DNA of 64,000 nt from a virus. Position 1 is the stretch's first letter; every line of letters starts with the position of its first letter. The notes under the pieces were generated by a model. It searched no databases, was not told the origin of the DNA, and saw nothing but the letters and a program-made list of their open reading frames with translations. The DNA lies in the IMG/VR virus record IMGVR_UViG_3300046373_000092, positions 18,066 through 82,065 of that record; one strand, written 5' to 3'. Position numbers and translations under genes: made by a program. This document shows positions 27,305 to 52,141 of the stretch, in pieces.

Positions 27305-27700
27305 TCATTTCTTTTTCCCTTTTTTAACCTTCTTTAGTATACTCTTTTTGTTGGGTCGCGTCAAGACCTTTTTTCGACTTCTTGCTAATTCTCTTTCTTC
27401 TCGCGTCTTTGCGTCGTGATGCGTTTTGCAGATTACTTGGAGCCCAAACACGTCACAAAACAATCTGAGGATAAAGCTGTCGAATCCCTGCCACCCCACG
27501 TTAGGATCTACCGCTGGCTCTATATGATCTACTTGCACGTCCTTGGCACGATGTAACACGTCAGGACCGCAAATGGCACAATGATACAGTCCGCGCTCTA
27601 CACGAGCAGCTCGCAATGCGTCACCTCGTGCGGGAGAACGCAGCCAAGCGCGGCGGAGAGTTGAGACGCAGTAGGATTTTAGTTTAGAATCGATAGCCAT
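27305..27700 (-). CDS. HNH endonuclease
   Basis: CxxC...'VQVDHIEP'...'LQVICKTHHDAKT'. Confidence 0.8.
   Translation of the reverse strand: MAIDSKLKSYCVSTLRRAWLRSPARGDALRAARVERGLYHCAICGPDVLHRAKDVQVDHIEPAVDPNVGWQGFDSFILRLFCDVFGLQVICKTHHDAKTREERELARSRKKVLTRPNKKSILKKVKKGKKK
27336..27364 (-). promoter_or_regulatory. Sigma70-type promoter
   Basis: TTGACG-17-TATACT. Confidence 0.5.
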
Positions 27701-27888
27701 TATTTTTTCCTAGTTAGTTCTTTAATTAATTTTGAGTTTATAGCCCCTTTACAGATATACCATTGATTGGAAGATATATGAAATGACCCATATTTTCCAA
27801 ACTTCAAAGGACCGAGGCGGGTTAATTCTAGAAGATAGTACATGTTTAACCACGTGAAAGAGGGCTTATCTTTATTGCTAATAGCCAT
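27700..27888 (-). CDS. SxxxxEL family member (MAISNK)
   Basis: ...ICKGAINSKLIKELTRKK. Confidence 0.7.
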   Translation of the reverse strand: MAISNKDKPSFTWLNMYYLLELTRLGPLKFGKYGSFHISSNQWYICKGAINSKLIKELTRKK

Positions 27889-28063
27889 ATAACTCTCTTA
27901 GTAGCTCTGATTTATAGACAGATTCGGAGATAACAAAACAGTCTTCAAGACACTCATATTTTGAAGATTTATAATTATTAATAAAGCTGTGAGATATTCC
28001 TTCCGATAATATTTCCTGATTAGTCCAGTCAAATTTAAAGTCCTTTTTATTGCTAATTGCCAC
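27878..28063 (-). CDS. SxxxxEL family member (MAISNK)
   Basis: ...VISESVYKSELLRELYGY. Confidence 0.7.
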   Translation of the reverse strand: MAISNKKDFKFDWTNQEILSEGISHSFINNYKSSKYECLEDCFVISESVYKSELLRELYGY

Positions 28064-28211
28064 GGAACAACTCCTGAAAAATGTCAGTGCCTAATAGCTG
28101 TATTTTGTGGGTTCCTCTACTGTGAGACAGATAGGCTATCTCATCACCTCCGTATCTAGAGTGAAGTGCTATGTTGAATTGCATAAATTTAGGAGAATAA
28201 ATAAATTTCAC
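28053..28211 (-). CDS. SxxxxEL family member
   Basis: GTGA overlap; MKFIY...LLGTDIFQELFRGN. Confidence 0.6.
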   Translation of the reverse strand: MKFIYSPKFMQFNIALHSRYGGDEIAYLSHSRGTHKIQLLGTDIFQELFRGN

Positions 28212-28384
28212 GATAATAGTTCCTTGTAAACGGCAGATCTGAACACATCTAAGTGGAGCACATAGCGAGTTCTCCAAGGACGAGTCCTAGCATAGTCGTA
28301 AGTTCCAGACTGGATTAGACCACTGTTAAAAGCTTGAATTGAATGAACAGGAAAAAACCAAGCATCAGTCTTGTTTATCGCCAT
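28208..28384 (-). CDS. SxxxxEL family member (MAINK)
   Basis: ...LHLDVFRSAVYKELLS. Confidence 0.7.
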   Translation of the reverse strand: MAINKTDAWFFPVHSIQAFNSGLIQSGTYDYARTRPWRTRYVLHLDVFRSAVYKELLS

Positions 28385-28512
28385 TTTCGTTTTCCTTAAA
28401 AAAGTCAATCATTTCTTTAGAAAAGTAATCGAGGAAGATTTCTGTTTCTAAGTCCAGCTCGTCGTCCTGAGGGATCTTGTGGATCATTTTAATTTTAGCG
28501 ATTAGTTTTTTC

Positions 28513-28710
28513 TTAAGCTCTTCCATATAGCTCCTCTAGTAGTGTAGAATATATTACTCGGTGATTTAAAATTATGAATTCATTTTTATACCAGAAAAGC
28601 TCGGAAACCGCCTCTTCAAATGTGTAAGATCCGACCTTGTAATCTAAATCCAGCAGCCACTCTGCATACATCCAATCAAAAGTATCTGTGTCTTTATTAC
28701 TTATCGCCAT
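28513..28710 (-). CDS. SxxxxEL family member (MAISNK)
   Basis: ...LNHRVIYSTLLEELYGRA. Confidence 0.7.
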   Translation of the reverse strand: MAISNKDTDTFDWMYAEWLLDLDYKVGSYTFEEAVSELFWYKNEFIILNHRVIYSTLLEELYGRA

Positions 28711-28891
28711 ACAATTCCTTAAAAATTGGAGTCCTCAATGTTGCGTAGCGAACTATGAATGTCGGAGGAGTGTGGTGAGTTCCAATTCTATAATGATCCT
28801 TTATCTCCTCAAAACTGCCCCGAGCTGGGTGAAGGGTCCATCCGCCATACCCTTTGTAAAAAAATCTATGTTGAAGCTCCGGTCTTTTCAC
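28697..28891 (-). CDS. SxxxxEL family member
   Basis: MKRPELQHRFFY...IVRYATLRTPIFKELYGDK; close paralog of 29067..29252. Confidence 0.7.
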   Translation of the reverse strand: MKRPELQHRFFYKGYGGWTLHPARGSFEEIKDHYRIGTHHTPPTFIVRYATLRTPIFKELYGDK

Positions 28892-29070
28892 AACCACAAT
28901 TCCTTAAATAAATCACTGTGAACAGACTTTAGTCTGTAGATGTAAACGGGATATACCCAAGGAGTGTATTTATTAATTTTGTAGTATTGTAACCTAGCAT
29001 GAGATCCATCTATCAATTTATGAAAAGCTTGTTTGCCAAAATGTCCCAAGACAAATCTATGCCTTTTCAT
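28888..29070 (-). CDS. SxxxxEL family member
   Basis: MKRH...YRLKSVHSDLFKELWL. Confidence 0.7.
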   Translation of the reverse strand: MKRHRFVLGHFGKQAFHKLIDGSHARLQYYKINKYTPWVYPVYIYRLKSVHSDLFKELWL

Positions 29071-29252
29071 TTAAATAACTCCGCAAATATTTCAGCTCTA
29101 CAGACGCCGGCTCTAACAATGAATGCTGAAACAAATGTTGAATAATGAGGATATAATTCTTTAATTTCTTGGTATTTTCCGGAATGAGGATGAAGTCGCC
29201 ACTTGTTGTAATTATAAAAATAAAGTTTATGAATTAAGTTAGGTTTTTTCAT
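29067..29252 (-). CDS. SxxxxEL family member
   Basis: MKKPNLIHKLYF...IVRAGVCRAEIFAELFK. Confidence 0.7.
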   Translation of the reverse strand: MKKPNLIHKLYFYNYNKWRLHPHSGKYQEIKELYPHYSTFVSAFIVRAGVCRAEIFAELFK

Positions 29253-29538
29253 TACTAATAGTCTCTCTGTGGTTACAAACTTTGCAAACTCTAAGCTCTC
29301 TGTTTCCAGGAATAGGTATCTTTAGGTAAGGTCCTCTTGCACAGTTAGGGCAAGTTAACTCCTGACGTCGTTCGGACTTCTCTTCCGAAAAGTCGGCAAA
29401 AGCTTCTTGCATTTCCTCCAGATTTCTCTGAATATTTTGAAGCTGTTTCAGCTCGCGTTTTAAGCGACGATTCTCGCTCTCCAGTTTACGGATTTCTCCA
29501 CGATAATGTTCAGACTCAGAGCGATCTTTATTTCTCAA
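29239..29538 (-). CDS. Coiled-coil plus zinc-ribbon protein
   Basis: CPNC...CKVC. Confidence 0.6.
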   Translation of the reverse strand: MRNKDRSESEHYRGEIRKLESENRRLKRELKQLQNIQRNLEEMQEAFADFSEEKSERRQELTCPNCARGPYLKIPIPGNRELRVCKVCNHRETISNEKT

Positions 29539-29728
29539 AAAATTTTACCTCTAAAAAAAGAGATGAAACTATAGAAGATTCGGGAACATCAAGTCTTAGA
29601 AAAATAGCACCAGTAAATGTGCCTTTAAATTTCACTCCTTGGTAGGAGGGATCTAAATTCCAAGCTCCAACCATAAGTCCCTTGGAATTAATCCAACAAA
29701 TTCTAAAATCACGAGTAATTGGTATCAT
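29528..29728 (-). CDS. SxxxxEL family member (divergent)
   Basis: ...SSIVSSLFLEVKF. Confidence 0.45.
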   Translation of the reverse strand: MIPITRDFRICWINSKGLMVGAWNLDPSYQGVKFKGTFTGAIFLRLDVPESSIVSSLFLEVKFFEK

Positions 29729-30117
29729 TTCTTAGCCTTAACCTTAATACAGTAGCCATCCTGAAATATTACAGGTAAATCTCTATCTATCATTATGTCA
29801 TAAAAGCGTTTGTGCGTCAAGTTATCTTTTAATAATTGCACTCTATGCTCGTTACTGCCGCAAAGTATTAGGCTATGTCTAACGGGGCAAATTAAGCCGC
29901 TGGGAGACAGAAGTAGGGTGTTGGTAGCTAAGGTTAGGTTCGGGCTGCCAGATAGGCTAATGGTGAAATTACTGGAATATAGGGGGATGATGGATTTTAC
30001 TGTCGCCTCAGTAATTGTATTGTCTTCGTCCAAAACATTAATTTTGTCGCCAATGCTTATTTTAGTAATAGAGGTAGCCACTTTGTTTTTCCAAACTACA
30101 TAATTACTTAATATCAT
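29725..30117 (-). CDS. Degenerate stand-alone Hint-fold-like protein
   Basis: 'ITKISIGDKI...ATVKSI...FTISLSG..LTLATNTLLL...FYDIMID..VIFQDG'; catalytic Cys1 and His absent. Confidence 0.4.
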   Translation of the reverse strand: MILSNYVVWKNKVATSITKISIGDKINVLDEDNTITEATVKSIIPLYSSNFTISLSGSPNLTLATNTLLLSPSGLICPVRHSLILCGSNEHRVQLLKDNLTHKRFYDIMIDRDLPVIFQDGYCIKVKAKK

Positions 30118-30289
30118 AAAGTGCCTGGATTATTTTAGACTTTACAGACTTTTCGTTTACAAACTTAGGATTAGCCATAAATCCATTTTGCCAGTAATCT
30201 GCAGAGTAGTCTAAGCTGAAGTTTAGAAATATATGCATGCGCACAGTTTCGAGGCTATCAAAAAATATCCCACGAGTTGAGCGTTTCAT
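30104..30289 (-). CDS. SxxxxEL family member
   Basis: MKRST...VNEKSVKSKIIQALYDIK. Confidence 0.65.
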   Translation of the reverse strand: MKRSTRGIFFDSLETVRMHIFLNFSLDYSADYWQNGFMANPKFVNEKSVKSKIIQALYDIK

Positions 30290-30492
30290 TTTAGCAGACC
30301 CTCAATAACAGAACTCCGGAAAACTCTAACATCTATTGCGGTATCATGGGTGGAATAGGGATCGTAAACTTCACGAAGAGGCACGAATTCAGATATCTCG
30401 TGTTCTAAATAATCTCTATCCTTTAAATATCTATAAATAAAACTTTCCTCGTTATCTACCCAAAAATATTTATTATCGAGAATACGTTTCAT
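30286..30492 (-). CDS. SxxxxEL family member
   Basis: MKRILDNKYF...IDVRVFRSSVIEGLLK. Confidence 0.65.
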   Translation of the reverse strand: MKRILDNKYFWVDNEESFIYRYLKDRDYLEHEISEFVPLREVYDPYSTHDTAIDVRVFRSSVIEGLLK

Positions 30493-30668
30493 TTTACAAT
30501 TCCTATAGTAGGAAACAGTTCTTGTATCAGGGCAGAATTAATAGTGTTTTGACAAGCTAAAAATATATCTTCGGGATAGAGAGGTAAACTGAAATCATAC
30601 CTAGGATGCCCGCCAGTAATGAGTACTTCATCTGAAAAAAATGTTTTGTATACTAGATAATATTTCAT
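30489..30668 (-). CDS. SxxxxEL family member (59 aa, not in the track)
   Basis: MKYYLVYK...ACQNTINSALIQELFPTIGIVK; ATGA overlaps at both ends. Confidence 0.65.
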   Translation of the reverse strand: MKYYLVYKTFFSDEVLITGGHPRYDFSLPLYPEDIFLACQNTINSALIQELFPTIGIVK

Positions 30669-31297
30669 GATCTTTTGAATCTCTCAGAATGCCAAAGTTT
30701 AACGTCTAACTCCAGTCTAGTTAAAGTATCGTCATTGTTAATAATAACGTCATAGTCTTTATCTTCCCCTATAGACAGTTCAGAGACGTGTCCCGACCCT
30801 TCGTATCCTGCACGCTTAATTCTGATCAGAGTAGCCCCTAGAGACTTTAGCGCGGCTCTTTCGTTGGGAAATCTAGCGTCAGTAATTACAATGTGCCCTT
30901 CCGTTTTTTTAACAACGTCTAGCGCCAAGTTAACAAGAAAGTCTTCGGCGATACAGTTACGTAACAGCTCTGTTCCGATAAACTGCAGTATCTCTCGGGG
31001 GGTGTTAAAAAACTTGTCTCTGCCATGCTGCATTAGTAGCTGGGTCTGCATTTCGTCAGCATTAACTAACTTAGCCAAAATCTCCACATTTTCAATTCTC
31101 ATAATTACTGGAGAATTAAAGCTAAGGTCTTTAAGCGCATCATCTGTAAAATGGATTAGGGGGAGCTGCATACACTCGGCAGAAAGCTTACGCAGAGGAT
31201 CTGCAAAGGCTACTCTTTGATAATTGAAGTGACGTTTTAATATATCAGCGACGACATCTTTACCTGAGCGTTTAGGAGCAGAGAGTACGATAATCAT
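30665..31297 (-). CDS. Deoxynucleoside monophosphate kinase (T4 gp1-like)
   Basis: P-loop 'APKRSGKD', 'AFADPLR', 'PREILQFIGTE', 'ITDARFPNE'. Confidence 0.85.
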   Translation of the reverse strand: MIIVLSAPKRSGKDVVADILKRHFNYQRVAFADPLRKLSAECMQLPLIHFTDDALKDLSFNSPVIMRIENVEILAKLVNADEMQTQLLMQHGRDKFFNTPREILQFIGTELLRNCIAEDFLVNLALDVVKKTEGHIVITDARFPNERAALKSLGATLIRIKRAGYEGSGHVSELSIGEDKDYDVIINNDDTLTRLELDVKLWHSERFKRS

Positions 31298-31476
31298 AAG
31301 TATAATTCCTTTAGTAGTTGTGATTTGAAGATTTTATTATTAAGAATAACCGACCCGTGAAACGGGTTTTTGCAGAAAGAGTAGGGCATATTCCTATAGA
31401 TAGATGATGCAATTGCATCACTTAAATAGAGGAATGCGTAGTAGTCGAACTGGGATTTGTTTTTTCCGCTAATCAT
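31294..31476 (-). CDS. SxxxxEL family member
   Basis: MISGKNK...LNNKIFKSQLLKELYL. Confidence 0.7.
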   Translation of the reverse strand: MISGKNKSQFDYYAFLYLSDAIASSIYRNMPYSFCKNPFHGSVILNNKIFKSQLLKELYL

Positions 31477-31658
31477 GACAATAGCTCCTTCATAATTGAG
31501 GATTGGAATACGTCAATTAGAGTTATTCTCCAATTTCTAGCCTTAGCAATATCCGGAGTGTGTATGCACAAATCTAAATTTCTAGTTGCAGCTTTTAAGT
31601 CTGAGTACGTTAGGGGGCTATCGGAGCTATACCCCCTCTTAGTATTATCTATCGCCAC
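31473..31658 (-). CDS. SxxxxEL family member (MAIDN)
   Basis: GTG start; ...TLIDVFQSSIMKELLS. Confidence 0.7.
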   Translation of the reverse strand: MAIDNTKRGYSSDSPLTYSDLKAATRNLDLCIHTPDIAKARNWRITLIDVFQSSIMKELLS

Positions 31659-31851
31659 GAAATAGCTCCTGGATAATCTTAGATTCAAGCATGTCGTATA
31701 GCCAAATACTGAATCCGTATTCTTCTGCCATTAAAGAGTCGTGTCTTTGATGTATCCCATACCTCGAACTGTCCAAAGCTCTTTTAAAAACATCCATTGA
31801 ACCGCGCTTAAATCTATAGGTGTAGCCTAGTTTGTTTTTATTTATTGCCAT
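31645..31851 (-). CDS. SxxxxEL family member (MAINK)
   Basis: ...WLYDMLESKIIQELFRGDR. Confidence 0.7.
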   Translation of the reverse strand: MAINKNKLGYTYRFKRGSMDVFKRALDSSRYGIHQRHDSLMAEEYGFSIWLYDMLESKIIQELFRGDR

Positions 31852-32050
31852 TAGATGCCTCAAATAATTCTAAAAATATCTCAGATTGAAAGTATTCATT
31901 GCGAACAAAATATCCATATTGCCCTCCCGTATTCGGAGTGTGACACCCATCAAATGGATTATCGGAATACTCGAGATAATCAGAGTAGAAATCTTTAGTC
32001 TCAGAGAAATTATAAAATCTACAGCCCAGCAAGTCTTTTCTTGTCGCCAT
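31838..32050 (-). CDS. SxxxxEL family member
   Basis: ...VRNEYFQSEIFLELFE. Confidence 0.7.
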   Translation of the reverse strand: MATRKDLLGCRFYNFSETKDFYSDYLEYSDNPFDGCHTPNTGGQYGYFVRNEYFQSEIFLELFEASNGNK

Positions 32051-32051
32051 A

Positions 32052-32228
32052 CTAGTCCTTAAATAAAGCTATGAATAATTCTGAGTTGAGTGTTTCATTG
32101 CAAAAAAATCGGTCTTTGTTTATAATCCCAGGGTCACTCGACAGCCATCGACCGTAAGAGCTTCCGACATAATTCTTTAGACAGTACGGCAGTACCGCAA
32201 ACTTACTAAATACAAATCCTTGCTTCAT
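32052..32228 (-). CDS. SxxxxEL family member (58 aa, not in the track)
   Basis: MKQGFVF...FCNETLNSELFIALFKD. Confidence 0.65.
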   Translation of the reverse strand: MKQGFVFSKFAVLPYCLKNYVGSSYGRWLSSDPGIINKDRFFCNETLNSELFIALFKD

Positions 32229-32582: not shown

Positions 32583-32612
32583 ATTGTAGCACAGTGTCAT
32601 TGCTAATTGCAA
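32583..32612 (-). promoter_or_regulatory. Sigma70-type promoter
   Basis: TTGCAA-18-TACAAT with extended TG. Confidence 0.5.
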
Positions 32613-32776
32613 CAAAGTTCTTGAATAAGTTCTGATTTAATACAAGACTCAGATAGTGCATATTTCCAATGATGCTTCACAAAGTGGAAGTCATATTGGT
32701 ATTCCAACCCATTAATGAGGGGTAGTTCATATAAAATATCGTCCACTCCAATATACAATCTCTTTTTGTCTATCAC
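32603..32776 (-). CDS. SxxxxEL family member (57 aa, not in the track)
   Basis: MIDKKRLY...LSESCIKSELIQELCCN; GTGA overlap with the exonuclease gene. Confidence 0.65.
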   Translation of the reverse strand: MIDKKRLYIGVDDILYELPLINGLEYQYDFHFVKHHWKYALSESCIKSELIQELCCN

Positions 32777-33711: not shown

Positions 33712-34056
33712 TTACTCCTGTAATTCCCATTCGTTATGGATTGTGCATATTTCTTTGGGAACATATTCCATTTTTCCCATATATCTAAATTTGTTAAATA
33801 CTCTTTTCGGATTAGTATCATATTCGCCAATTATTAAATAACAATCGCTGTCAGCAGCAGAATCTACTAAATAAGTTTTGCCGAACATTTCATTTTTAAC
33901 ACGGTCATAGCGGAGGGCGACAAGCGCCTCCGGTTTAATTTTATCGTAGACATCTTGACTGATTACCAACTCTCCGCTATCTCCGATATAACTGTTTGGA
34001 AAAAGATTCAATGCGTCACGAAGGGTGGCAACTGTTATTTTTCTTAGCTTAGGCAT
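33712..34056 (-). CDS. Hypothetical protein
   Basis: SD supplied by the upstream family member. Confidence 0.55.
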   Translation of the reverse strand: MPKLRKITVATLRDALNLFPNSYIGDSGELVISQDVYDKIKPEALVALRYDRVKNEMFGKTYLVDSAADSDCYLIIGEYDTNPKRVFNKFRYMGKMEYVPKEICTIHNEWELQE

Positions 34057-34232
34057 AATTCCCTCACAATTTCAGAATAGAAAACATCTACGTCTATATA
34101 AATACCAACAATTCTCTTATAAGAATAAGAATTACCCCAAGTACACTGCTTTACAGGCTTGTAGCTAGCTATACTGATTATAGAAGCGCCAGTAGAAACG
34201 GCAACGTAATATTTATCGTCAAATCTCTTCAT
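34044..34232 (-). CDS. SxxxxEL family member
   Basis: MKRFDDKYY...IDVDVFYSEIVRELCLS. Confidence 0.7.
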   Translation of the reverse strand: MKRFDDKYYVAVSTGASIISIASYKPVKQCTWGNSYSYKRIVGIYIDVDVFYSEIVRELCLS

Positions 34233-35270: not shown

Positions 35271-37568
35271 TTATTTTCCCTCTCTTAAATTATAAGCTAC
35301 TGTCGGCTCCGCAATTAACGGCATCAGTAGTGTGTTTGTATTCTCCATACAGTCTTTAACAATTTCGCAAGATCTATCTAATTCTTGTTTATTAGCAGTA
35401 GCTACCCATTCGTCGTGAACCTGCAAACTTAACCAAGCGTCCGTCCCCTCTTCCAGAAACTTCTTAGCCATAGCTATTCCGGCTCTGTTTACTAAACTGG
35501 CAGCGGCAGATTGAATCGGGAAGTTAAGGGCGTTATTTAATAGACCGTTGTAAGTCTTGCTAATGTCTTTAGCTTCTTGATATGTTATGCCGTGACGTTT
35601 TGCGATTAGCCCAAGTTTTTTGTAGTCGAGGATGCCGTCGCCGTAAGTGTCGTATATTTCTTTCACTCTCGGTAAATGGCGGACACGTCCAAACTTACTA
35701 GTTACTTTCCCAGTGGTCTTGGCTTCACGTAAATACTGGTCCATCTTCTTCTTCAGTCCGGGGAAAGCTTTAAAATAGTTATCAATAATGACCTGAGCCT
35801 CCTCCATACTGATGTTGAGAGTCTTGGATAGTTTCCCAGCCTTCATTCCATAGCGAATTCCCAAAGCATAAGCCTTGGCATCTTGACGCTTTTTTGGAAA
35901 CAACTTCTTCAAAAAGTTAGCAGCCTTTTTATCAGCAGAGACCCCTTGAATATTTTCAGCATTAATCGCCACTACTGAGTACATGTCTAAGCTGTCTGTG
36001 AAGATTTTAATTAAAGCTTCGTCTCCAGCATCGTCAGCAAAGACTCTCGGCTCCAAAGATTCATAATCGTCATCAATGTAAGCGTAGCCCGGTTTAGGAA
36101 TTAGCAGTTCCCTAATAATATCGTTAAACTTCGCGATAGTTGGATGCTCTTCTTCCTCGTCTTCTTTCGGCTTCGGAAATTGTTGAGCATCCGATCCGTA
36201 GCGCCCAGAGGTAGTTCCGTGCTGTTTAAAGCTTGGATACCAGATGCCATCTTCTTGTTGATCAATCAGACGTTGGTAATAACTACTTTGTATTTTTGTA
36301 AGTTTATTAAATATTCTAAGTTGAGTTGCCCAGTCAAAGCCATATTTTTCGGCGATATGTTCAACCACTTTTTCGTCAAATTGATCTCCGCCGGTCTTTG
36401 TTTTCGAAAGAGAAGCAATTCCCATGTAATCAAAAACAATCCTTTTAAGATGATGTTTGGAGCTAATGTTGATGAAGTTTTCGGAGTCATCAGATTCTTT
36501 TAGTAGCTGTAGTTGTATTTCTCTTGTGACATACTCTGGAAGATCTTCTAGTCCCAATAGAAATTTAAGACCCGCACCTCCCCTCGGAAGTATATCAGAG
36601 TTAAGGCTTTCTAAATTTTTTTTAGTGATGCTAAATTTACCGGCAGCAGTTCGAGGTAGTGGCAAATCATAATATGTTGCAACTTTCTGAGCAAAACCTC
36701 CACTATTTTTGGGAGCAAATTCTTGTTCAAGTCGTTCCTGAACAAATCTCTGCCCTGCCGGAGTAGCCATCAAAGCATCAATTACTATTTTTTCGTAGTT
36801 TGCCAATTCAATAGTTATTTCTGCATTTGCCTTTAGTAGTTTTGGCATGTCGAGGTATACCCCTCGGTGCTCCATCTTCACCGTGCAATATTTATATAGC
36901 GGCATAACCTCATCTTCGTAAAAAAAGCCGTGTAAACTTTCAACGTGCAGTCTAACTTCTAAAAACTTGAACAATCGAATAGTCATATCTACATCGGCAC
37001 AGCAGTAGTAGCCTATAAGCTCCATATCGCCTTTGTAGATGTCTTTCTGAGTCTTCAGCCATTTACCTCCGTTGCGTTTAACAGACTCCGCCAGTTCTAA
37101 TTGCTCCTGGTTAGAAGCGTCCTGTTCGTCGAGTCCAATCTCAACTTTGTATTTTTCTGCAAGGAACTTCAAACCAACGTTAGATTCCTCGTCTAGTGTG
37201 TGCTCCATTAGCTGAGTATCGGCGTGTAACGATCCGAGATAATTTACCTTTAAGTCATTCATGGTAATGCGAATATCGTAACTAGCGTTGTGCATTACAA
37301 GCTTTTTCGACTTCATAGCATCAAGCAGTAGTTTGTGATTAAAGGGCAGGGCGAAATCGACAAGAGTGTCAGTCTCGACATCAAATTTGAAGAGAGGATA
37401 GTAGTAACCCATGCCCTCTTGCCCAGTGAAGCCATACCCAATTACTGTGTCTTTGCGAACGTTTAGTCCAGTAGTCTCTGTATCATAGGCAATGAATTCA
37501 TGCGACTTAATGTGGTCCAAGGCTTCTTGAAAAAGTTCTGGAGTGTTAATAATCAAATAATTCTTCAT
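35271..37568 (-). CDS. polA: Family A DNA polymerase with 3'-5' exonuclease
   Basis: 'DTETTG', 'HNASYD', 'TTSGRYGS', motif A 'DYESLEPRV', motif B 'RQDAKAYALGIRYG', 'NFPIQS', motif C 'QVHDE'. Confidence 0.95.
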   Translation of the reverse strand: MKNYLIINTPELFQEALDHIKSHEFIAYDTETTGLNVRKDTVIGYGFTGQEGMGYYYPLFKFDVETDTLVDFALPFNHKLLLDAMKSKKLVMHNASYDIRITMNDLKVNYLGSLHADTQLMEHTLDEESNVGLKFLAEKYKVEIGLDEQDASNQEQLELAESVKRNGGKWLKTQKDIYKGDMELIGYYCCADVDMTIRLFKFLEVRLHVESLHGFFYEDEVMPLYKYCTVKMEHRGVYLDMPKLLKANAEITIELANYEKIVIDALMATPAGQRFVQERLEQEFAPKNSGGFAQKVATYYDLPLPRTAAGKFSITKKNLESLNSDILPRGGAGLKFLLGLEDLPEYVTREIQLQLLKESDDSENFINISSKHHLKRIVFDYMGIASLSKTKTGGDQFDEKVVEHIAEKYGFDWATQLRIFNKLTKIQSSYYQRLIDQQEDGIWYPSFKQHGTTSGRYGSDAQQFPKPKEDEEEEHPTIAKFNDIIRELLIPKPGYAYIDDDYESLEPRVFADDAGDEALIKIFTDSLDMYSVVAINAENIQGVSADKKAANFLKKLFPKKRQDAKAYALGIRYGMKAGKLSKTLNISMEEAQVIIDNYFKAFPGLKKKMDQYLREAKTTGKVTSKFGRVRHLPRVKEIYDTYGDGILDYKKLGLIAKRHGITYQEAKDISKTYNGLLNNALNFPIQSAAASLVNRAGIAMAKKFLEEGTDAWLSLQVHDEWVATANKQELDRSCEIVKDCMENTNTLLMPLIAEPTVAYNLREGK

Positions 37569-37743
37569 CTATTAATTCCTTAAAAACTTCAGACGTTATT
37601 GCTAAATATTTCACATAGTCATTATTTAAGAGGGTGTATGCAAAATTAGCGGAATCGCCTATGAACCAAGTTCCGGTTTCATCGCGATACCCAACTAGCT
37701 CTGAGCCGTCCTTATTTATCTTATATCCTTTCACAGTGCTCAT
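37546..37743 (-). CDS. SxxxxEL family member directly upstream of the polymerase
   Basis: ...YVKYLAITSEVFKELIDE; its AAGGAA is the polymerase SD. Confidence 0.65.
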   Translation of the reverse strand: MSTVKGYKINKDGSELVGYRDETGTWFIGDSANFAYTLLNNDYVKYLAITSEVFKELIDEELFDY

Positions 37744-38000
37744 GATGGACCCAAAGGCAAATCCTTTCTTCGAGGACGAGATTCAGCGTCCTGCGCTCTA
37801 GGGGCGGCAGACACTAGATAGCCGCTCTGAACTAACTCTTGTTCAAGTTCCTCGTGTAATAATGTGCGTTTATGAGGATTTTTTTCATACGCTACAAATT
37901 CTTTAACCTCACATACGAATTCAATAAACTCCACCCCAGCCATCATAGCCATAAAAAAAAGAACCGCGTATCCAACCCATTGAGCTATTTCATTTAACAT
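37740..38000 (-). CDS. Membrane-anchored hypothetical protein
   Basis: AGGAG SD; N-terminal TM. Confidence 0.55.
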   Translation of the reverse strand: MLNEIAQWVGYAVLFFMAMMAGVEFIEFVCEVKEFVAYEKNPHKRTLLHEELEQELVQSGYLVSAAPRAQDAESRPRRKDLPLGPS

Positions 38001-41645: not shown

Positions 41646-41938
41646 AACAATTCTCCAATTAAATCAGAAGTAGTAACTGTTAATTTTACGTTCACTGGAG
41701 TAAACTTTCCGATCCAAATGTTAGTAATAATCTTGCCAATATAAGATCCAATAAAATTGGCATCACTACAAGCTTGATACGGGATACTTTGCGTTTGCAT
41801 TTTTCTAGTAGTCATGTTTTGTATTGTTAACTGTATGTAATAACTCTCTTGCCGATCTGTAAGATGTATTCGATACAAATCCCCCCTAAAGTATATGGGA
41901 TCTTGGAATTCACGAAGCGCATTGATAATGACACCCAT
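41639..41938 (-). CDS. 99-aa protein ending in the family motif
   Basis: ...VKLTVTTSDLIGELLC. Confidence 0.55.
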   Translation of the reverse strand: MGVIINALREFQDPIYFRGDLYRIHLTDRQESYYIQLTIQNMTTRKMQTQSIPYQACSDANFIGSYIGKIITNIWIGKFTPVNVKLTVTTSDLIGELLC

Positions 41939-44405: not shown

Positions 44406-44434
44406 TTTATAGCACAGCGTTAATTATTTGTCAA
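44406..44434 (-). promoter_or_regulatory. Sigma70-type promoter for the AAA/vWA genes
   Basis: TTGACA-17-TATAAA with extended TG. Confidence 0.75.
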
Positions 44435-44600
44435 GCGAAAATAATTCTTTTATTAAAGCAGAATTTCTTGTGTCATATTTAATTAAATATGCTCCCGGAT
44501 CGGAGCCAACGTTGGCTATTCCATTTTCATCCACTAGAAATGAACCATCATATTCTAAATGATCAATCCAAAAAACATAGTCTCCAATTTCAATTTTCAT
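44424..44600 (-). CDS. SxxxxEL family member (58 aa, not in the track)
   Basis: MKIEIGDYV...LIKYDTRNSALIKELFSLDK. Confidence 0.7.
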   Translation of the reverse strand: MKIEIGDYVFWIDHLEYDGSFLVDENGIANVGSDPGAYLIKYDTRNSALIKELFSLDK

Positions 44601-44786
44601 AAAAACAATCCCATTATTACTGCAGATTTCAATGCAACTACTCTAACGGGCTGTGTTTGTTCTATACCGTATAAGTCCGAGGCGCGCATCTGCCACCTCG
44701 ATCTACTGGTTTCATAGAAGTCTCGGAGTTCTTCCGCAGAATCATGATATAGCCCCCCAGCACCAGTCTCCAACTTTAATCTTCAT
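44597..44786 (-). pseudogene. Frameshifted family member (one extra base in a G6 run at 44753-44758)
   Basis: MKIKVGDWCW and ...VRVVALKSAVIMGLFL lie in different frames; the span is 190 nt. Confidence 0.65.
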
Positions 44787-44937
44787 CTAGCAACTCCTGA
44801 AAAATTACAGACTCGTAAACAGTAACTCTAATGTGAAAATAATCCTCGTGCTTTTGAAAATTAAATCCTCCGTGATGTTTCCAATAAAGATCAACAGGAG
44901 TCTTATAGTAGAATGGCTTGGATATATCAATTTTCAT
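44776..44937 (-). CDS. SxxxxEL family member (53 aa, not in the track)
   Basis: MKIDISKPFY...IRVTVYESVIFQELLDED. Confidence 0.7.
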   Translation of the reverse strand: MKIDISKPFYYKTPVDLYWKHHGGFNFQKHEDYFHIRVTVYESVIFQELLDED

Positions 44938-44941
44938 CTAG

Positions 44942-45103
44942 CTAACTCCTGTAGCAGCGAAGAGCAGAAATTTTTACCACCGGCAGGTGTTTTGAAAAAA
45001 CATTATTCATGGGAAGTATCCAGCCGGAGCTTTTAGCAACGCTAGCTCTTATATCAATTAAGTTTCGGTAATACCAACATGAGTCACCTGGTTTAGCTTT
45101 CAC
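44942..45103 (-). pseudogene. Family member with a 7-nt deletion in the conserved motif
   Basis: MKAKPGDSCWYY...VKISALR, then a shift; LQELAR continues in another frame; paralog of 45093..45269. Confidence 0.6.
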
Positions 45104-45269
45104 ACGCCAACTCCTGTAATAGTTCAGAACGCATAGCTATTATTTTTACAAAGGGGTAAGCAAGGGGTAACGGCTTTTTCAGTACCCATCCAGCTTTATT
45201 GTTAGTACTTTGCCTAATATCAAGAGTACTGGCGTAATACCAACACAAATCACCAGTTTTAGCTTTCAT
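45093..45269 (-). CDS. SxxxxEL family member
   Basis: GGAG SD; MKAKTGDLCWYY...VKIIAMRSELLQELACES. Confidence 0.7.
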   Translation of the reverse strand: MKAKTGDLCWYYASTLDIRQSTNNKAGWVLKKPLPLAYPFVKIIAMRSELLQELACES

Positions 45270-45385: not shown

Positions 45386-45565
45386 TTACTTCGGAGACTG
45401 AGGAAGCAAAGCCTCTAATATATCTGACTCAACACTGTCTACTCTAATTCTAAATCTATTTGGTAAGAAGCTGGAACTCCCTTTAAATGTGCGCACCCAA
45501 TAAATAGGATGAAAGCAATCTTCCCACAGGCTGTAGTAGTGGAAGTGTCCCTGTTTAAGCTTCAT
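45386..45565 (-). CDS. SxxxxEL family member
   Basis: MKLKQGH...IRVDSVESDILEALL. Confidence 0.7.
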   Translation of the reverse strand: MKLKQGHFHYYSLWEDCFHPIYWVRTFKGSSSFLPNRFRIRVDSVESDILEALLPQSPK

Positions 45566-45765
45566 TTGAATGCTCTCCAAATTTCTGCGTTAACAGCATC
45601 TACTCTAATTACAAAGTTTCCTGCCGTGTACGAAAGAATCAGATCTTGAAAACGGACTCCATAGCGATAAGAGCCCCTATTTCTATAGCCCGCACTGTAA
45701 GATATCCAAGCACAACCTCTCTGAGAAGATAGAATTACGCACTTGTCTGTTGGTCTAATTTTCAT
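45562..45765 (-). CDS. SxxxxEL family member
   Basis: MKIRPTDKCV...IRVDAVNAEIWRAFK. Confidence 0.65.
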   Translation of the reverse strand: MKIRPTDKCVILSSQRGCAWISYSAGYRNRGSYRYGVRFQDLILSYTAGNFVIRVDAVNAEIWRAFK

Positions 45766-45870: not shown

Positions 45871-45872
45871 TT

Positions 45873-48108: not shown

Positions 48109-48137
48109 ATCTTAGCACGTATTGCGTTATTTTGCAA
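48109..48137 (-). promoter_or_regulatory. Sigma70-type promoter
   Basis: TTGCAA-17-TAAGAT with extended TG. Confidence 0.55.
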
Positions 48138-48306
48138 ATAATTCTTTTATTAATTCAGAAAGCACCACTGAAGCCTTTGTGACGGGGAACGCGGCGTAGT
48201 TGTGTCTACGAGGAAGGTCCCATCCCAAGTTCCAAGTCCCTTTTCTCTTGGCTAAAGCAGATACATTTTCCGCATAAACTACTTTATCTCCGGGTTTTGA
48301 TTTCAT
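48127..48306 (-). CDS. SxxxxEL family member (59 aa, not in the track)
   Basis: MKSKPGDKVV...TKASVVLSELIKELFAK. Confidence 0.7.
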   Translation of the reverse strand: MKSKPGDKVVYAENVSALAKRKGTWNLGWDLPRRHNYAAFPVTKASVVLSELIKELFAK

Positions 48307-48478
48307 TAGCCAATCCTCTTAGTATTTCAGATTTAATTGCGTCCATTCTTAGAATCAGTTTGTCGCTACAATAATAGCTGCTGTCGTATGCGGCGCCGGT
48401 TGCATCTCGAGTAGTCCAATTCATCCAAAAACTTGGAGTAGTGTATCTTACGCAGAATTGCCCTTCTTTAATTTTCAT
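48284..48478 (-). CDS. SxxxxEL family member
   Basis: MKIKEGQFCV...LRMDAIKSEILRGLA. Confidence 0.7.
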   Translation of the reverse strand: MKIKEGQFCVRYTTPSFWMNWTTRDATGAAYDSSYYCSDKLILRMDAIKSEILRGLANEIKTRR

Positions 48479-48645
48479 TTTAGTAACTCTCTAATTATTG
48501 CGCTGGCAGCAGAGTCTATTCTTGTAATGTTTAGGAGGTCTTCCACAGATTGCAAATATGTGGGAGATCTTTTATCAAACACGCACAATTTAAAAAATTC
48601 TAAAGTTTTCCAATTTATAACACTGTCCGTTGGCTTAGCTTTCAC
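48475..48645 (-). CDS. SxxxxEL family member (56 aa, not in the track)
   Basis: MKAKPTDSVI...TRIDSAASAIIRELLK. Confidence 0.7.
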   Translation of the reverse strand: MKAKPTDSVINWKTLEFFKLCVFDKRSPTYLQSVEDLLNITRIDSAASAIIRELLK

Positions 48646-48823
48646 GATATAACTCCCATATTATTTCAGATCTGGCTGCACTAGTTTTTATGTAATGATA
48701 CGGAGGTATGGTATTCTCCTGCAGCCTTCTCCAGCCGTCGCAACCAATTTCAAAATCGCCAAATTTGAGGCTATGTTGGATGTCTACAATGTAAGTTACT
48801 GTGTCTTCTGGTTTAAGTTTCAC
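48635..48823 (-). CDS. SxxxxEL family member
   Basis: MKLKPEDTV...IKTSAARSEIIWELYRES. Confidence 0.7.
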   Translation of the reverse strand: MKLKPEDTVTYIVDIQHSLKFGDFEIGCDGWRRLQENTIPPYHYIKTSAARSEIIWELYRES

Positions 48824-49007
48824 GACATAACTCCTGAAGAATTTCTGATCTTAGAGCACTTATTTTTGTAGGATAATCAGTTTCGTCTCCATAGTATTCG
48901 TAGCTCGGCGCTTCTATGTTCACCTCGACGGCACATTGAACCCAGCCTATAATTCCGCGAAGTGAGTTAAACACATACAAACATTGATCGCCCTCTTTAA
49001 GCTTCAT
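48813..49007 (-). CDS. SxxxxEL family member
   Basis: MKLKEGDQCL...TKISALRSEILQELCRET. Confidence 0.7.
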   Translation of the reverse strand: MKLKEGDQCLYVFNSLRGIIGWVQCAVEVNIEAPSYEYYGDETDYPTKISALRSEILQELCRET

Positions 49008-49152
49008 ATAAAAGTTCTCGCAGTAATTCAGATTCCATTGCAATAAAAGAAACTCTATAAAAGTTATCCTTAGCCGATATATTTTTGTACTCTAAGCGAA
49101 ATAGAACTCGGTCTCTGATATCCCTTCGGTCTATTCTCCAATACATCTTCAT
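48997..49152 (-). CDS. SxxxxEL family member (51 aa, not in the track)
   Basis: MKMYWRID...VSFIAMESELLRELLYEA; ATGA overlap with the nuclease gene. Confidence 0.65.
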   Translation of the reverse strand: MKMYWRIDRRDIRDRVLFRLEYKNISAKDNFYRVSFIAMESELLRELLYEA

Positions 49153-50030
49153 CTTTGTCCTGGCTCCGCATCATAAATATCGTCATCAAATTTTCCTTTA
49201 TGACAATAGCTATAATAGCAGCATTTGCTGCCAAATGCAAAACATGATTTACGATTTTGAGGAAAATGTCCAGCGTTAATCTTGCCCAATACGTCAAGAA
49301 AATTCTGCATCGTCTGCTCTTTTAACTCTTCTGGAGGTTTGCCGATCAGTAGTTGGGTCCTGCCAAGCTGCTTTTTCATCATTACTGCGAACCCCACGTG
49401 ACTGTATTGTGGCTTTGCTACTGAGTATAGAGCGGTCTGCTCTTTCTTTTCAATAGAGTTTTTAGGATAGGGCTGAGAACTTGTCTTGTTATCTATAATG
49501 GCTTCTACGATTTCTCCGTCATCCATAACGACCTCAGCTACCAAGTCTATAATGCCCGTAATAGAGTCGGAAGTTTCTTGTCCATCGTCGTCATAGCCCA
49601 CTAAATTGATGGGCTCCTGAACAGAAATAACTTTAACAATGCGAGGCAGTATATCTCTGTAGTATGCATCTAACATAGCACGTCCTTTTTGGAACAGCGT
49701 GTACCATGCCAGTAAGTGTAACTTCTTCTCTTCATCCTGCTCAGCGTCAATGTCCTCTGCTTGCTGCAGAGTTAGTAGCGTGATGTCTGAATCTGACTTG
49801 TAAAAAACTATGTTGTAATTTTCTTTATACTGAAGCCAGTCCTCTGTGAATACAAGTTCAGCCCCTGCATAATTTCGTGTCAGCAGTAGCTCATTTAAGG
49901 CGTTATCTATACTATTTCCGAAGCAGAGCGCCGAGGAAGTTTTTAAAGAACGCTTACGGTCAATGTAATGGAGCTTATAGCTCATTGGACACGACAAATA
50001 TCTATCTTTGGCAGAGTGTGATAGTCTCAA
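49149..50030 (-). CDS. PD-(D/E)XK (RecB/Cas4-like) exonuclease
   Basis: 'LSHS...YLSCP', 'GIIDLV', 'IIDNKTS', 'QTALY', C-terminal Cys cluster. Confidence 0.85.
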   Translation of the reverse strand: MRLSHSAKDRYLSCPMSYKLHYIDRKRSLKTSSALCFGNSIDNALNELLLTRNYAGAELVFTEDWLQYKENYNIVFYKSDSDITLLTLQQAEDIDAEQDEEKKLHLLAWYTLFQKGRAMLDAYYRDILPRIVKVISVQEPINLVGYDDDGQETSDSITGIIDLVAEVVMDDGEIVEAIIDNKTSSQPYPKNSIEKKEQTALYSVAKPQYSHVGFAVMMKKQLGRTQLLIGKPPEELKEQTMQNFLDVLGKINAGHFPQNRKSCFAFGSKCCYYSYCHKGKFDDDIYDAEPGQR

Positions 50031-50218
50031 ATGAATAGCTCCTTTAATAGCTCAGAGTTTATTGCAGTAATTTTGTAAGGTAGGACCTTTCCACTTACTG
50101 CATATTTGGATTGGAAGTTAAACCCACATCGTTGACCGTCTGAATCACCGCTGTAGTAATGAGCAACTAGTCTTTTAATATCATTATACCAAATCTTATC
50201 GCCTAATTTAATCTTCAC
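50027..50218 (-). CDS. SxxxxEL family member
   Basis: MKIKLGDKIW...YKITAINSELLKELFI. Confidence 0.7.
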   Translation of the reverse strand: MKIKLGDKIWYNDIKRLVAHYYSGDSDGQRCGFNFQSKYAVSGKVLPYKITAINSELLKELFI

Positions 50219-50402
50219 TTAGTAATTCCTTAATTATGTCAGCTCGGAATACCGAGTGCTTCACGATTTCTCTTTCCGACAATATGAAATAACTGGGAAC
50301 CTTATAGTCCTTAGGATTTATAATAGACAAGAAGTGCAGATAGGATTTTTGAAGAGATTCGTGACCGAAGCAAAATCCCAAATCTCCAACTTTAATCTTC
50401 AT
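50208..50402 (-). CDS. SxxxxEL family member
   Basis: MKIKVGDLG...VKHSVFRADIIKELLSED. Confidence 0.7.
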   Translation of the reverse strand: MKIKVGDLGFCFGHESLQKSYLHFLSIINPKDYKVPSYFILSEREIVKHSVFRADIIKELLSED

Positions 50403-50586
50403 GCAGCTCTCCAAATATAATACTTTCCCAAACCTTTGCTTTAAGGACAGTCAAGTTGGAGGGTGCAAGAGAGCGATCTCCCCAACACCAGCCGTATATA
50501 GCTCTCGTTCTTCGGATTATAAGCTTAGCTTCGTCGACATTGTAATAAATAAGAACCATGTCCCCACTACTGATCTTTGTAGCCAT
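50392..50586 (-). CDS. SxxxxEL family member
   Basis: MATKISSGDMV...LKAKVWESIIFGELHED. Confidence 0.65.
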   Translation of the reverse strand: MATKISSGDMVLIYYNVDEAKLIIRRTRAIYGWCWGDRSLAPSNLTVLKAKVWESIIFGELHED

Positions 50587-50800
50587 CGGCTTTCCTTTTT
50601 GCAGCTTCAACAAAAGCCTCTGTGAGTTTTTTATCTTTAGCAATTATATTTACAGTGAGGTAATACGACAGAGAGTGTCTGAAAAACATCACGTAGCTGG
50701 CAATAAATAATCCCCAGCCAACTGTAGCTAAGACTCCCGGATTTTCAGTAGTGAAGGTGTAGATTACTGCTGTGATTAGTCCGATAATTAAATTAATCAT
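50567..50800 (-). CDS. Small two-TM membrane protein
   Basis: Hydrophobic helices. Confidence 0.55.
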   Translation of the reverse strand: MINLIIGLITAVIYTFTTENPGVLATVGWGLFIASYVMFFRHSLSYYLTVNIIAKDKKLTEAFVEAAKRKADGYKDQ

Positions 50801-51104
50801 TGATGTTTCCTAGGTATGAGAAGTGGTCTGTGTCTAAAAAATCTTCATCGTGAAGTATATTTATCCTACTAACTGCGGAGTATTCGGGAGTAGATACTAT
50901 GTAGCTCGACTCTAAGACTTGAAATACTACAGAAACTCTAGTTGAAGCAAAAAGATCTCCAACTCTAACTTCATCCTTTCTGGGAGGTTGTAAAATCTCT
51001 AATTTTTTTATTTTGCAAAGATCCCATACATTGCACCGAATACTTAGGAATATGATTGCTATGGTCATGACCGCTGCTATAAATGCCCAGTGATAAAGTT
51101 CCAT
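50793..51104 (-). CDS. Membrane-anchored hypothetical protein
   Basis: AAGGA SD; N-terminal TM. Confidence 0.5.
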   Translation of the reverse strand: MELYHWAFIAAVMTIAIIFLSIRCNVWDLCKIKKLEILQPPRKDEVRVGDLFASTRVSVVFQVLESSYIVSTPEYSAVSRINILHDEDFLDTDHFSYLGNIND

Positions 51105-51401
51105 TTAATCTTCCTTGATAATTTTTAAGGACACAACTAGCACTCCCGAGAATGCCAATCCAAATATAACGGGCTCTCCAGCATGGACTCCCAAAATACT
51201 CGCTAAAGTAAATGCTAGTAGTAGATACATCTATCGATGGTCCTTGGTAATGACGGCGCCAATAGCGCACGCAAATACTGAAATAATATTCATCGGCAGC
51301 ATTAAATAATTGCCGTAATAGTAATTTGTAACCGCGAAGGTTAAGCTGACTATTCCAAAGATAAAGTTAGTGTAAAACGCTATTCTGCCCATAAAACCTC
51401 C

Positions 51402-51791
51402 TCATCGAACAAATCTAAAAAGTAGTCCTAGATTGTCGATTTGTTTTTCCTGGACAGTATAAACTGAACTGGAGATTCCTTCCAGCTTAGTAAAAAATTC
51501 TTCTTGTAGAGTTCCGTCCGCTAAGATCATCTCGATGTTGTCTAAGTCAATATACACTTGATTGACCGTAGCCTCAGCTCTGACGGACACCACTACCGCG
51601 TTATCCAGCGGCATGACTCCATCATTACTGAGAGAAATCGTATTGCTAGGATTGCCCTTTAACTGAATACGAGACAGCTTTTGTCTCAGGTTACTTGGAT
51701 CTGTAGCCGCTCCTAATCTCGTAGCGACAAGCTCTGTCAATAGATTAAATTTCTTCTGGTAGTCAGCATCATAAACAACGTCATCAAACAT
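51402..51791 (-). CDS. Hypothetical protein
   Basis: AAGGAG SD supplied by the upstream family member. Confidence 0.6.
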   Translation of the reverse strand: MFDDVVYDADYQKKFNLLTELVATRLGAATDPSNLRQKLSRIQLKGNPSNTISLSNDGVMPLDNAVVVSVRAEATVNQVYIDLDNIEMILADGTLQEEFFTKLEGISSSVYTVQEKQIDNLGLLFRFVR

Positions 51792-51972
51792 ACAGTATCT
51801 CCTTAATTAATTTTGAATTTAACACTGCTATACGAAGTATAGTCTGCTTGTATTCAGTGTCGTACCAGCTCCAACCTTTTGCGTTGGTTTTATAGTATGC
51901 GTTTGAAATTCGTTTCCAATCGCCTACTACAGTTCCTAATTCCCAACACGAATCACCAACTTTAATTTTCAT
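51784..51972 (-). CDS. SxxxxEL family member
   Basis: MKIKVGDSCW...LRIAVLNSKLIKEILYV. Confidence 0.7.
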   Translation of the reverse strand: MKIKVGDSCWELGTVVGDWKRISNAYYKTNAKGWSWYDTEYKQTILRIAVLNSKLIKEILYV

Positions 51973-52141
51973 GGAATAATTCCTTTATTACTTCAGAACA
52001 TAGAGAATCTGCCCTTACCGGAGTGTTTAGAAGAAATTTATTCCCCGATCCCAACCTCCAGCCTCTACTGCCAGCAGAAAAGAAACTCTGGACACTGCTT
52101 CTGCCAACGTCCCAAACTAAGTGGTGACTCTGTACTTTCAC
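51962..52141 (-). CDS. SxxxxEL family member (59 aa, not in the track)
   Basis: MKVQSHHLVW...VRADSLCSEVIKELFHEN. Confidence 0.65.
   Translation of the reverse strand: MKVQSHHLVWDVGRSSVQSFFSAGSRGWRLGSGNKFLLNTPVRADSLCSEVIKELFHEN

Follow-up and report, generated by a model that had tools for sequence, protein, structure and literature searches.

The conserved C-terminal motif of a phage microprotein family contains a Shine-Dalgarno-like site for the following gene

The 64,000-nucleotide window analysed here corresponds to bases 18,066-82,065 of IMG/VR record IMGVR_UViG_3300046373_000092, a complete virus genome of 82,065 bp with direct terminal repeats. About 60 small minus-strand open reading frames (ORFs) of 50-75 aa, lying between core genes, form one lineage-specific family, whose products end in the motif S-x-[ILV]-[ILVF]-x-E-L-[FLY] and one to seven further residues. 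Where a gene directly follows a member, the codons of the motif pair x-E usually have the composition, position and strength of a Shine-Dalgarno (SD) site for that gene, and the first codons of that gene supply the stop codon of the member. The arrangement is most probably an instance of known translational coupling, that is, an intragenic SD site combined with a start/stop overlap, which in this genome has become a fixed part of a family motif and recurs at more than 40 junctions. Coordinates are those of the window unless marked as genome. The stretch in which the family is concentrated is:

27700..52141 (-), about 42 members, in blocks between core replication genes

The motif search of the whole genome returned 56 members, and in their alignment the first base of the E codon was set as position 0. 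A member was regarded as coupled when a start codon at +5 to +11 opened an ORF of at least 45 aa, and 43 of the 56 members fell into this class. The starts were located at +10 (15 members), +11 (13), +7 (nine), +5 (three) and +8 (two). They coincide with the conserved N-termini of the family, MK[ILA]K.GD and MAISNK, and therefore the start calls are supported independently of the SD site. Both junctions quoted in an earlier note on this DNA, GTG 28063 after CAG GAG TTG TTC C and ATG 38000 after CAG GAG ATT TT, are present as described. The note was also right in placing an SD site before the next start, but the spacing measured from GGAG is 4-8 nt and not the 6-9 nt given there. Overlap with the next gene was found at 42 of 53 family junctions, compared with 32 of 82 for other genes. 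Moreover, eleven non-family genes, including those for DNA polymerase, deoxynucleoside monophosphate (dNMP) kinase and a PD-(D/E)XK nuclease, start 5-11 nt after the E codon of a member.

The choice of synonymous codons in the motif depends on coupling. The junction logo shows that the codon preceding E ends in G in 35 of 43 coupled members and in 2 of 13 uncoupled ones, while the background frequency of third-position G in family gene bodies is 17% (p = 2e-20 for G at this position). This third base is the most constrained nucleotide outside the positions determined by the amino acid. The residue encoded by this codon varies (K, Q, R, E, W, G, T, A or M), and the combination of varied residues with a constant G indicates selection at the nucleotide level. 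The contrast is sharpest for K and Q, which are encoded by AAG or CAG in 24/24 coupled members and in 0/9 uncoupled ones, where AAA or CAA is used instead (Fisher p = 2.6e-8). In the background, G-ending codons account for 34% of K/Q codons in family bodies, and genome-wide for 39% (AAG) and 32% (CAG). The E codon shows a weaker effect, GAG being present in 21/37 coupled members against a background of 32% (p = 0.002). The mean predicted duplex energy, calculated with a generic anti-SD tail that may not be the host's own, was -5.95 kcal/mol for starts coupled to a family member and -6.39 for the remaining starts, with no significant difference between them, and pairing was far weaker at internal controls (-2.04; p = 3e-17) and at the same position of uncoupled members (-1.14). 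The proposal that the x-E codons act as an SD site is supported by both the wobble split and a duplex energy like that of ordinary starts.

The coupled junctions, each given with its x-E codons, start codon and start position, are the following:

51962..51985 (-), AAG GAA, ATG 51972 (+10), stop TAA, 11-nt overlap
51784..51804 (-), AAG GAG, ATG 51791 (+10), non-family 129-aa gene
50392..50412 (-), GGA GAG, ATG 50402 (+7)
50208..50231 (-), AAG GAA, GTG 50218 (+10)
50027..50044 (-), AAG GAG, TTG 50030 (+11), PD-(D/E)XK nuclease gene
48997..49020 (-), CGA GAA, weak site, ATG 49007 (+10)
48813..48836 (-), CAG GAG, GTG 48823 (+10)
48635..48658 (-), TGG GAG, GTG 48645 (+10)
48475..48492 (-), AGA GAG, ATG 48478 (+11, ATGA overlap)
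48284..48319 (-), AGA GGA, ATG 48306 (+10), long tail NEIKTRR
45093..45116 (-), CAG GAG, GTG 45103 (+10)
44776..44799 (-), CAG GAG, ATG 44786 (+10), opens a member frameshifted at a six-G run
44597..44614 (-), ATG GGA, ATG 44600 (+11)
41639..41656 (-), GGA GAA, GTG 41645 (+8)
41436..41468 (-), CAG GAA, ATG 41455 (+10)
38586..38645 (-), member 38586-38831, AAG GAA, ATG 38634 (+8), M78-like gene, 14-aa tail
37994..38011 (-), CAG GAG, ATG 38000 (+8)
37546..37581 (-), AAG GAA, ATG 37568 (+10), DNA polymerase gene
34044..34067 (-), GTG AGG GAA (GAGGGA), ATG 34056 (+5)
31645..31671 (-), CAG GAG, GTG 31658 (+10)
31473..31490 (-), AAG GAG, ATG 31476 (+11)
31294..31311 (-), AAG GAA, ATG 31297 (+11), dNMP kinase gene
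30286..30303 (-), GAG GGT, ATG 30289 (+11)
30104..30127 (-), CAG GCA, ATG 30117 (+7), 130-aa gene
29067..29084 (-), GCG GAG, ATG 29070 (+11)
28888..28905 (-), AAG GAA, GTG 28891 (+11)
28697..28720 (-), AAG GAA, ATG 28710 (+7)
28513..28536 (-), GAG GAG, ATG 28526 (+7)
28208..28225 (-), AAG GAA, GTG 28211 (+11)
28053..28076 (-), CAG GAG, GTG 28063 (+10)
27878..27898 (-), AGA GAG, ATG 27888 (+7)
61714..62621 (-), six coupled junctions: TGGGAG, AGGGAG, ACGGAG, GCTGAG, CAGGAG, AAGGCA
23745..25729 (-), two coupled junctions: 25712 with AAG GAA and ATG 25715; 23745 with AGG GAA and ATG 23748

Every coupled member terminates within the gene that follows it, the two overlapping by 4 to 26 nt, as had been claimed from the N-terminal codons of a few neighbours. 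For starts at +11 the stop is the TGA of ATGA or GTGA; for starts at +10 it is usually TAA, which bridges codons 3 and 4 of MK[ILA]K and takes its T from the end of the former and its AA from the start of the latter; and for starts at +7 it is a TAG or TAA inside MAISNK. The short tails ED*, ES*, ET*, EA*, EN*, GY* and GN* are accordingly the codons of MK[ILA]K or MAISNK read in the upstream frame. When the first 24 codons of the next gene were redrawn synonymously, the mean tail expected was 5.5-5.7 +/- 0.8 aa, compared with the 2.44 aa observed (P < 0.001), and the result persisted with a codon table taken from the N-termini of non-overlapped genes only. Longer tails exist (7 aa at 48284, 37546 and 31838; 14 aa at 38586), which indicates that an early stop is favoured and not required.

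The motif is also selected as protein. Its Ser codons belong to both codon families (TCN in 46 cases, AGY in four), as do its Leu codons (TTR in 32, CTN in 21), and K/Q-E-L is retained in members that are followed by no coupled start; it is these two facts that indicate selection at the protein level, in agreement with what the earlier note had supposed. In an AlphaFold model of a family protein (predicted local distance difference test score, pLDDT, 77), four strands are followed by a C-terminal helix, and the motif is placed in this confidently predicted helix at the very end of the protein. Fold searches gave only weak matches to small beta-barrels (Z of 3.4 or less), and comparison of the family with Pfam and PHROGs gave no match.

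The uncoupled members provide the complementary picture. The three terminal members singled out previously (32603, 44424 and 48127) do have CAA GAA or AAA GAA, and six more behave alike, so that an A-ending K/Q codon is found at 32603, 44424, 48127, 30489, 27700, 60324, 61365, genome 2626 and genome 287. Where the motif is unusable for a following gene, a replacement SD site is present either in the tail (AAGGAC at 32052, GAGGCA at 31838, GAGG at 29528, GAGG at 41237 for the primase start at 41267, AGGA at 30489 and AGGAAA at 27700) or earlier in the motif (GGAGGA at 23557, TGGAGA at 45562 and GAGGGA at 34044). The SD site is selected as a nucleotide sequence. The terminal, substitute and variant sites are listed below:

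48127..48147 (-), terminal member, AAA GAA, no following start, 38-nt gap to the next gene
44424..44450 (-), terminal member, AAA GAA; the tail SLDK-stop has TTGACA, with TATAAA 17 nt later
32603..32623 (-), terminal member, CAA GAA, then promoter-like TTGCAA-18-TACAAT
32050..32072 (-), substitute site; motif ATA GCT gives no ribosome-binding site; tail AAGGAC for ATG 32050
31838..31873 (-), substitute site; motif TTA GAA gives no ribosome-binding site; tail GAGGCA for ATG 31851
30489..30524 (-), substitute site; CAA GAA unused; tail AGGA for ATG 30492 (+29)
29528..29566 (-), substitute site; degenerate motif; tail GAGG for TTG 29538
27698..27723 (-), substitute site; member 27700-27888, AAA GAA unused; tail AGGAAA for ATG 27700, HNH-like gene
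41237..41281 (-), substitute site; motif SDIFQTLL; tail GAGG for primase-helicase ATG 41267
45562..45579 (-), variant member AEIWRAFK; TGG AGA one codon earlier; ATG 45565
44935..44951 (-), frameshifted member 44942-45103; motif lost; CAGGAG retained 8 nt upstream of ATG 44937

A mechanism may be proposed in which both levels of constraint are reconciled. The E codon begins with GA, and the exposed residue before it would be free to take any G-ending codon, so that the motif pair reads (A/C/G)(A/G)G-GA(G/A), which is an SD core. This core lies 4-8 nt before the next start, which falls within the final one to seven codons of the member, and ribosomes finishing a member, or binding afresh, would begin the next gene from it. 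Selection would retain the wobble G only where a start follows, and would act on the early codons of the next gene so as to end the upstream frame without delay. The distance of 4-26 nt between stop and start fits the termination-reinitiation of overlapping pairs. The family may have expanded in this lineage mostly by local duplication, and since every copy would have carried the same 3' end, the junction pattern would have been produced more than 40 times, including before essential non-family genes.

Several observations weigh against this explanation. In RNA predictions the start region is as accessible as the controls, and coupling to upstream termination is therefore indistinguishable from independent initiation. 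About half of the coupled junctions have GAA, which gives the weaker AAGGAA, and a few sites are poor (CGA GAA at 48997, CAG GCA at 30104 and AAG GCA at 61714). Local duplication alone is insufficient for members located in at least 12 intervals of the backbone. Finally, the junctions are paralogs and hence not fully independent observations; it is unlikely, however, that the wobble states were inherited without selection, because the paralogs share no detectable nucleotide similarity in the self-comparison of the genome. The closest pair within the family is 40% identical in protein sequence. The self-comparison contained just two repeats, the 127-bp repeat at both genome ends and one 43-nt pair, and no recent duplicates with edges able to mark unit boundaries were found in the genome. 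In favour of local duplication, the N-terminal classes are clustered along the genome, with 19 same-class neighbours against 5.3 +/- 1.9 expected.

The comparison with syntenic relatives is important for the question of how the family spread. A DNA polymerase probe of IMG/VR, the JGI/ENA metagenomes and GenBank phages gave relatives of 49% identity or less, which had no family members and, among those checked for gene content, almost no other shared genes. The polymerase peptide patterns missed the true relatives, which were recovered with a primase-helicase probe: five syntenic IMG/VR phages of 78-85 kb (G001-G005; L082-L087). The closest, G001, is complete (81,763 bp), its primase and polymerase are 59% and 54% identical to those described here, and 37 ORFs are collinear. 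The family profile, built from 45 members and giving 52 matches in its own genome as control, had no match in the five relatives, four of which are at least 91% complete. Family blocks occur in at least 12 intervals between anchors shared with G001, and in four of these intervals G001 has no more than 38 nt between the anchors:

139-aa gene and 310-aa gene, adjacent in G001; here separated by member 25712
99-aa gene and dNMP kinase gene, adjacent in G001; here separated by four members and a 130-aa gene
dNMP kinase gene and 114-aa gene, adjacent in G001; here separated by five members
114-aa gene and exonuclease gene, adjacent in G001; here separated by member 32603

The exonuclease, 114-aa and dNMP kinase genes are adjacent in a second relative (L087) too, and therefore this adjacency is probably ancestral. 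By gene order, the family blocks look like precise insertions at gene boundaries, with end points that are resolved to gene order and not to the nucleotide at the 35-60% protein identity to G001. Unrelated genes of G001 show this layout too: they overlap by 1-23 nt and have SD sites within tails such as LHKER*, IKLKEAV* and YKELNAV*, and other unrelated small genes with the same overlaps occupy the same intervals in relatives. Between the anchors 55345 and 62744, G001 has 13.7 kb compared with 7.4 kb here, which indicates that genome size is kept while accessory gene sets differ. An M78-like peptidase gene is located between primase and polymerase here (38152-38634 (-); compared with L082 21082-21621), and in G001 and L083 it adjoins HNH-like and 86-aa genes, having thus moved within the collinear arm.

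The earlier note had concluded that any unit can be placed ahead of any other gene, in a cassette-like system with no attC sites or spacers. Part of this conclusion stands: eleven non-family genes are served by a member's motif, the blocks lie at gene boundaries, the genes overlap, and no attC-like repeats appeared in the self-comparison. General mobility by way of the junction does not follow from these data. Such mobility would make the junction a recombinase-free and spacer-free cassette boundary, with units running from one ribosome-binding site to the next and pasted by short-homology recombination; in an exchange by the ERF protein and the PD-(D/E)XK nuclease, the SD-start region would serve as microhomology and the junction would be the cause of the spread. 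We regard this as rather unlikely. It would agree with the contrast between 52 matches here and none in five syntenic relatives, with the blocks in at least 12 collinear intervals, with the use of member motifs by non-family genes, and with the presence of genes for the ERF protein, the nuclease and two HNH endonucleases. The tails of two family proteins from other sources (P0012 and P0011, described below) imply a downstream neighbour other than that of their nearest homologues here, 44424 and 50027. Moreover, 12 pairs of junction windows have identical stretches of 13-20 nt in common, compared with a maximum of 11 nt in gene bodies, and with the ERF protein and the nuclease these stretches make short-homology exchange at junctions possible. 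However, viable insertions are confined to gene boundaries under any mechanism, and the unrelated small genes that fill the same intervals in relatives have the same overlaps. The subfamilies are clustered, as local duplication would give, recent copies are lacking, with no nucleotide match even for the best pair, and the 5' joins of the blocks are varied. The shared stretches are accounted for by the double coding of two conserved protein ends, and a 20-nt match is, by estimate, about what codon usage would give among roughly 100 pairs. The cassette-like system as it was stated is for these reasons not supported: G001 has the same layout in unrelated genes, the subfamilies are clustered and there are no recent copies. 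A match of 23 of 27 nt between two distant junctions was also considered as evidence of exchange; it is real, but it is expected from the double coding of ELFRG(N/D) and VAI(N/D), and it was rejected.

Two further explanations concern the motif itself. If the motif were a nucleotide signal only, either a ribosome-binding site or another RNA element, its conservation in the protein would be a by-product. The x-E hexamer and the T at +4 are indeed the most informative columns of the logo, but the SD core covers just two of the eight motif positions, Ser and Leu are each encoded by two codon families, the structure model puts the motif in a confident C-terminal helix, and nine members without a start after the motif keep K/Q-E-L with A-ending codons. 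Such an explanation is very improbable. It is scarcely conceivable that the pattern is due to chance or base composition, with AT-rich, Lys-rich ends mimicking ribosome-binding sites and stops. A genome of 39% G+C and the frequency of out-of-frame stops in A/T-rich N-terminal codons would lend themselves to it, but it is rejected by all matched-background tests (2.6e-8 for the wobble base, 2e-20 for third-position G, 3e-17 for duplex energy and P < 0.001 for tails). Translational coupling through the family motif is the preferred explanation.

Family proteins are rare outside this genome. A hidden Markov model search of 1.8 billion representatives revealed three (P0011, P0014 and P0012), of which P0011 and P0014 share one 70,574-bp Logan contig and P0012 is encoded on a 975-bp ENA contig. 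Identity with the nearest members here is 39-45%, and the three proteins end in REN*, GY* and SHEN*, the same tail pattern; SHEN*, the tail of P0012, implies an MKIK gene behind it. P0012 is the nearest outside homologue of 44424 and P0011 of 50027. Word-indexed profile searches gave the genome's own proteins, P0011 and P0012 and nothing else, P0011 and P0014 were not present in the IMG/VR scan, and the junction DNA pattern gave 46 single matches in IMG/VR, all unrelated. The other candidates, P0008 together with the long repeat proteins P0004, P0007 and P0013, seem to be spurious matches. P0008, from a 2,214-bp ENA contig, has 182 aa and three 67-aa repeats, each with RIALHRSAILQELLH; its score against the family profile is E = 4e-5, but BLAST to members aligned the short motif only, and it is probably unrelated.

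Two members are disrupted. In the member at 44597-44786 (-) a frameshift at a run of six G divides the gene: translation from ATG 44786 gives MKIKVGDWCWGAIS-stop, and the remainder, with the motif SAVIMGLFL, is in another frame from about 44760. The frameshift may reflect a sequencing error, or it may mark a pseudogene or a slippage site. The ORF at 44942-45103 (-) is a paralog of 45093-45269 (MKAKPGDSCWYY compared with MKAKTGDLCWYY), in which a small indel puts the C-terminal motif out of frame, so that the protein ends in ...ALRCYRS-stop and LLQELA is readable in another frame.

Between about 23.4 and 63.7 kb of the window, the minus strand carries all genes. This arm encodes a family A DNA polymerase, a primase/DnaB-like helicase, an RNase H-fold exonuclease and the dNMP kinase, together with the ERF single-strand annealing protein, the PD-(D/E)XK nuclease, two HNH endonucleases and an AAA ATPase with a VWA/metallopeptidase partner. 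The ERF-family annealing protein and the nuclease (46617-47174 and 49149-50030 (-)) form a Red-like recombination pair. The early/replication arm may be transcribed as long minus-strand units of overlapping genes. In the tail and stop of two terminal members (genome 2626-2640, left of the window, and 44424-44450 (-)), a -35 box, TTGACA, occurs within the last codons, and TATAAA or TACAAT follows 17 nt on, so that family tails contain promoter-like sequences in addition to ribosome-binding sites. At 45843-45895 (-), a strong terminator-like hairpin with a GAAA loop is directly followed by TTGACA-16-TATACT with an upstream TG, and this pair is located just before a seven-member family block starting at 45765; similar GAAA-loop hairpins are found at 25939-25956 and 57242-57263. 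In a general scan, promoter-like and terminator-like sites did not exceed the shuffled expectation, and a few terminator-promoter pairs, such as that at 45895-45843, bound arrays. Comparison of the region with GenBank phages by megablast gave no match, and by DNA polymerase the nearest cultured phage is a Flavobacterium phage (42%). Strong SD sites (AGGAGG or AAGGAG, 4-8 nt upstream of the start) occur throughout the window. SD sites are reported to be hardly used by Bacteroidetes (PMC6728339), and therefore, despite the polymerase, the host is probably not a member of this group.

The junctions described here are an unusually clean natural case of one sequence under two constraints, that of a protein motif and that of a translation signal. 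The case includes its own internal control, since paralogs that keep the motif with K or Q and have no downstream start show A and not G at the wobble position every time, and it may be a good system for measuring the strength of selection on an internal ribosome-binding site. It also bears on how compact phage genomes gain small genes without disturbing essential ones, such as those for DNA polymerase, dNMP kinase and nuclease. Spread driven by the junction, if true, would represent a new and very simple type of gene cassette, and would account for the presence of about 60 copies at no fewer than 12 sites of an otherwise conserved backbone and for their absence from sister phages. The junctions are nevertheless a very regular case of a known mode of gene packing and not a demonstrated mobile cassette system.

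Among known systems, integron cassettes resemble the family units in being promoterless, in having one orientation and in being expressed from upstream signals. They differ in that the units here have no attC sites and no spacers and are paralogs of one family, not unrelated genes; a search of the complete genome for the tyrosine recombinase PF00589 gave no match, and all control genomes matched. The T4-type PeSL cassettes (PMC2839356, PMC4122927) are the closest published analogue for short-homology exchange. They also comprise many small, non-essential, lineage-specific genes between core genes, with a repeated regulatory sequence at ORF boundaries that has been proposed to permit gain and loss without breaking expression. 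PeSLs are, however, non-coding repeats of promoter and stem-loop with demonstrated recombination products, in contrast to the arrays described here, which contain no intergenic DNA and have a coding, degenerate repeat of about 25 nt with a translational signal, and in which recombination products were not seen.

The closest correspondence is to translationally coupled overlapping pairs. Overlapping gene pairs frequently have an intragenic SD site, which as a rule increases reinitiation (PMC6728339; review PMC12548453). The family junctions share with such pairs the start/stop overlap (ATGA and longer) at most junctions, the co-directional arrangement in long operons, and a GGA(G/A) core 4-8 nt before the start. 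Unlike them, they have the SD site within the conserved motif of a single family, more than 40 times and in three fixed registers (+7, +10 and +11), and overlaps of 11-14 nt equal the usual 4 nt in frequency. Codon bias at gene ends due to the ribosome-binding site of the next gene is also known (Eyre-Walker 1996, as cited in PMC8410138; PMC2784483). As in the effect described there, synonymous choice in the family depends on the need for a downstream SD site, and ATGA overlaps favour TGA as the stop. What is known is a statistical, genome-wide effect, whereas here it is all-or-none at one homologous codon across the paralogs of a single genome, among which the uncoupled ones serve as built-in controls.

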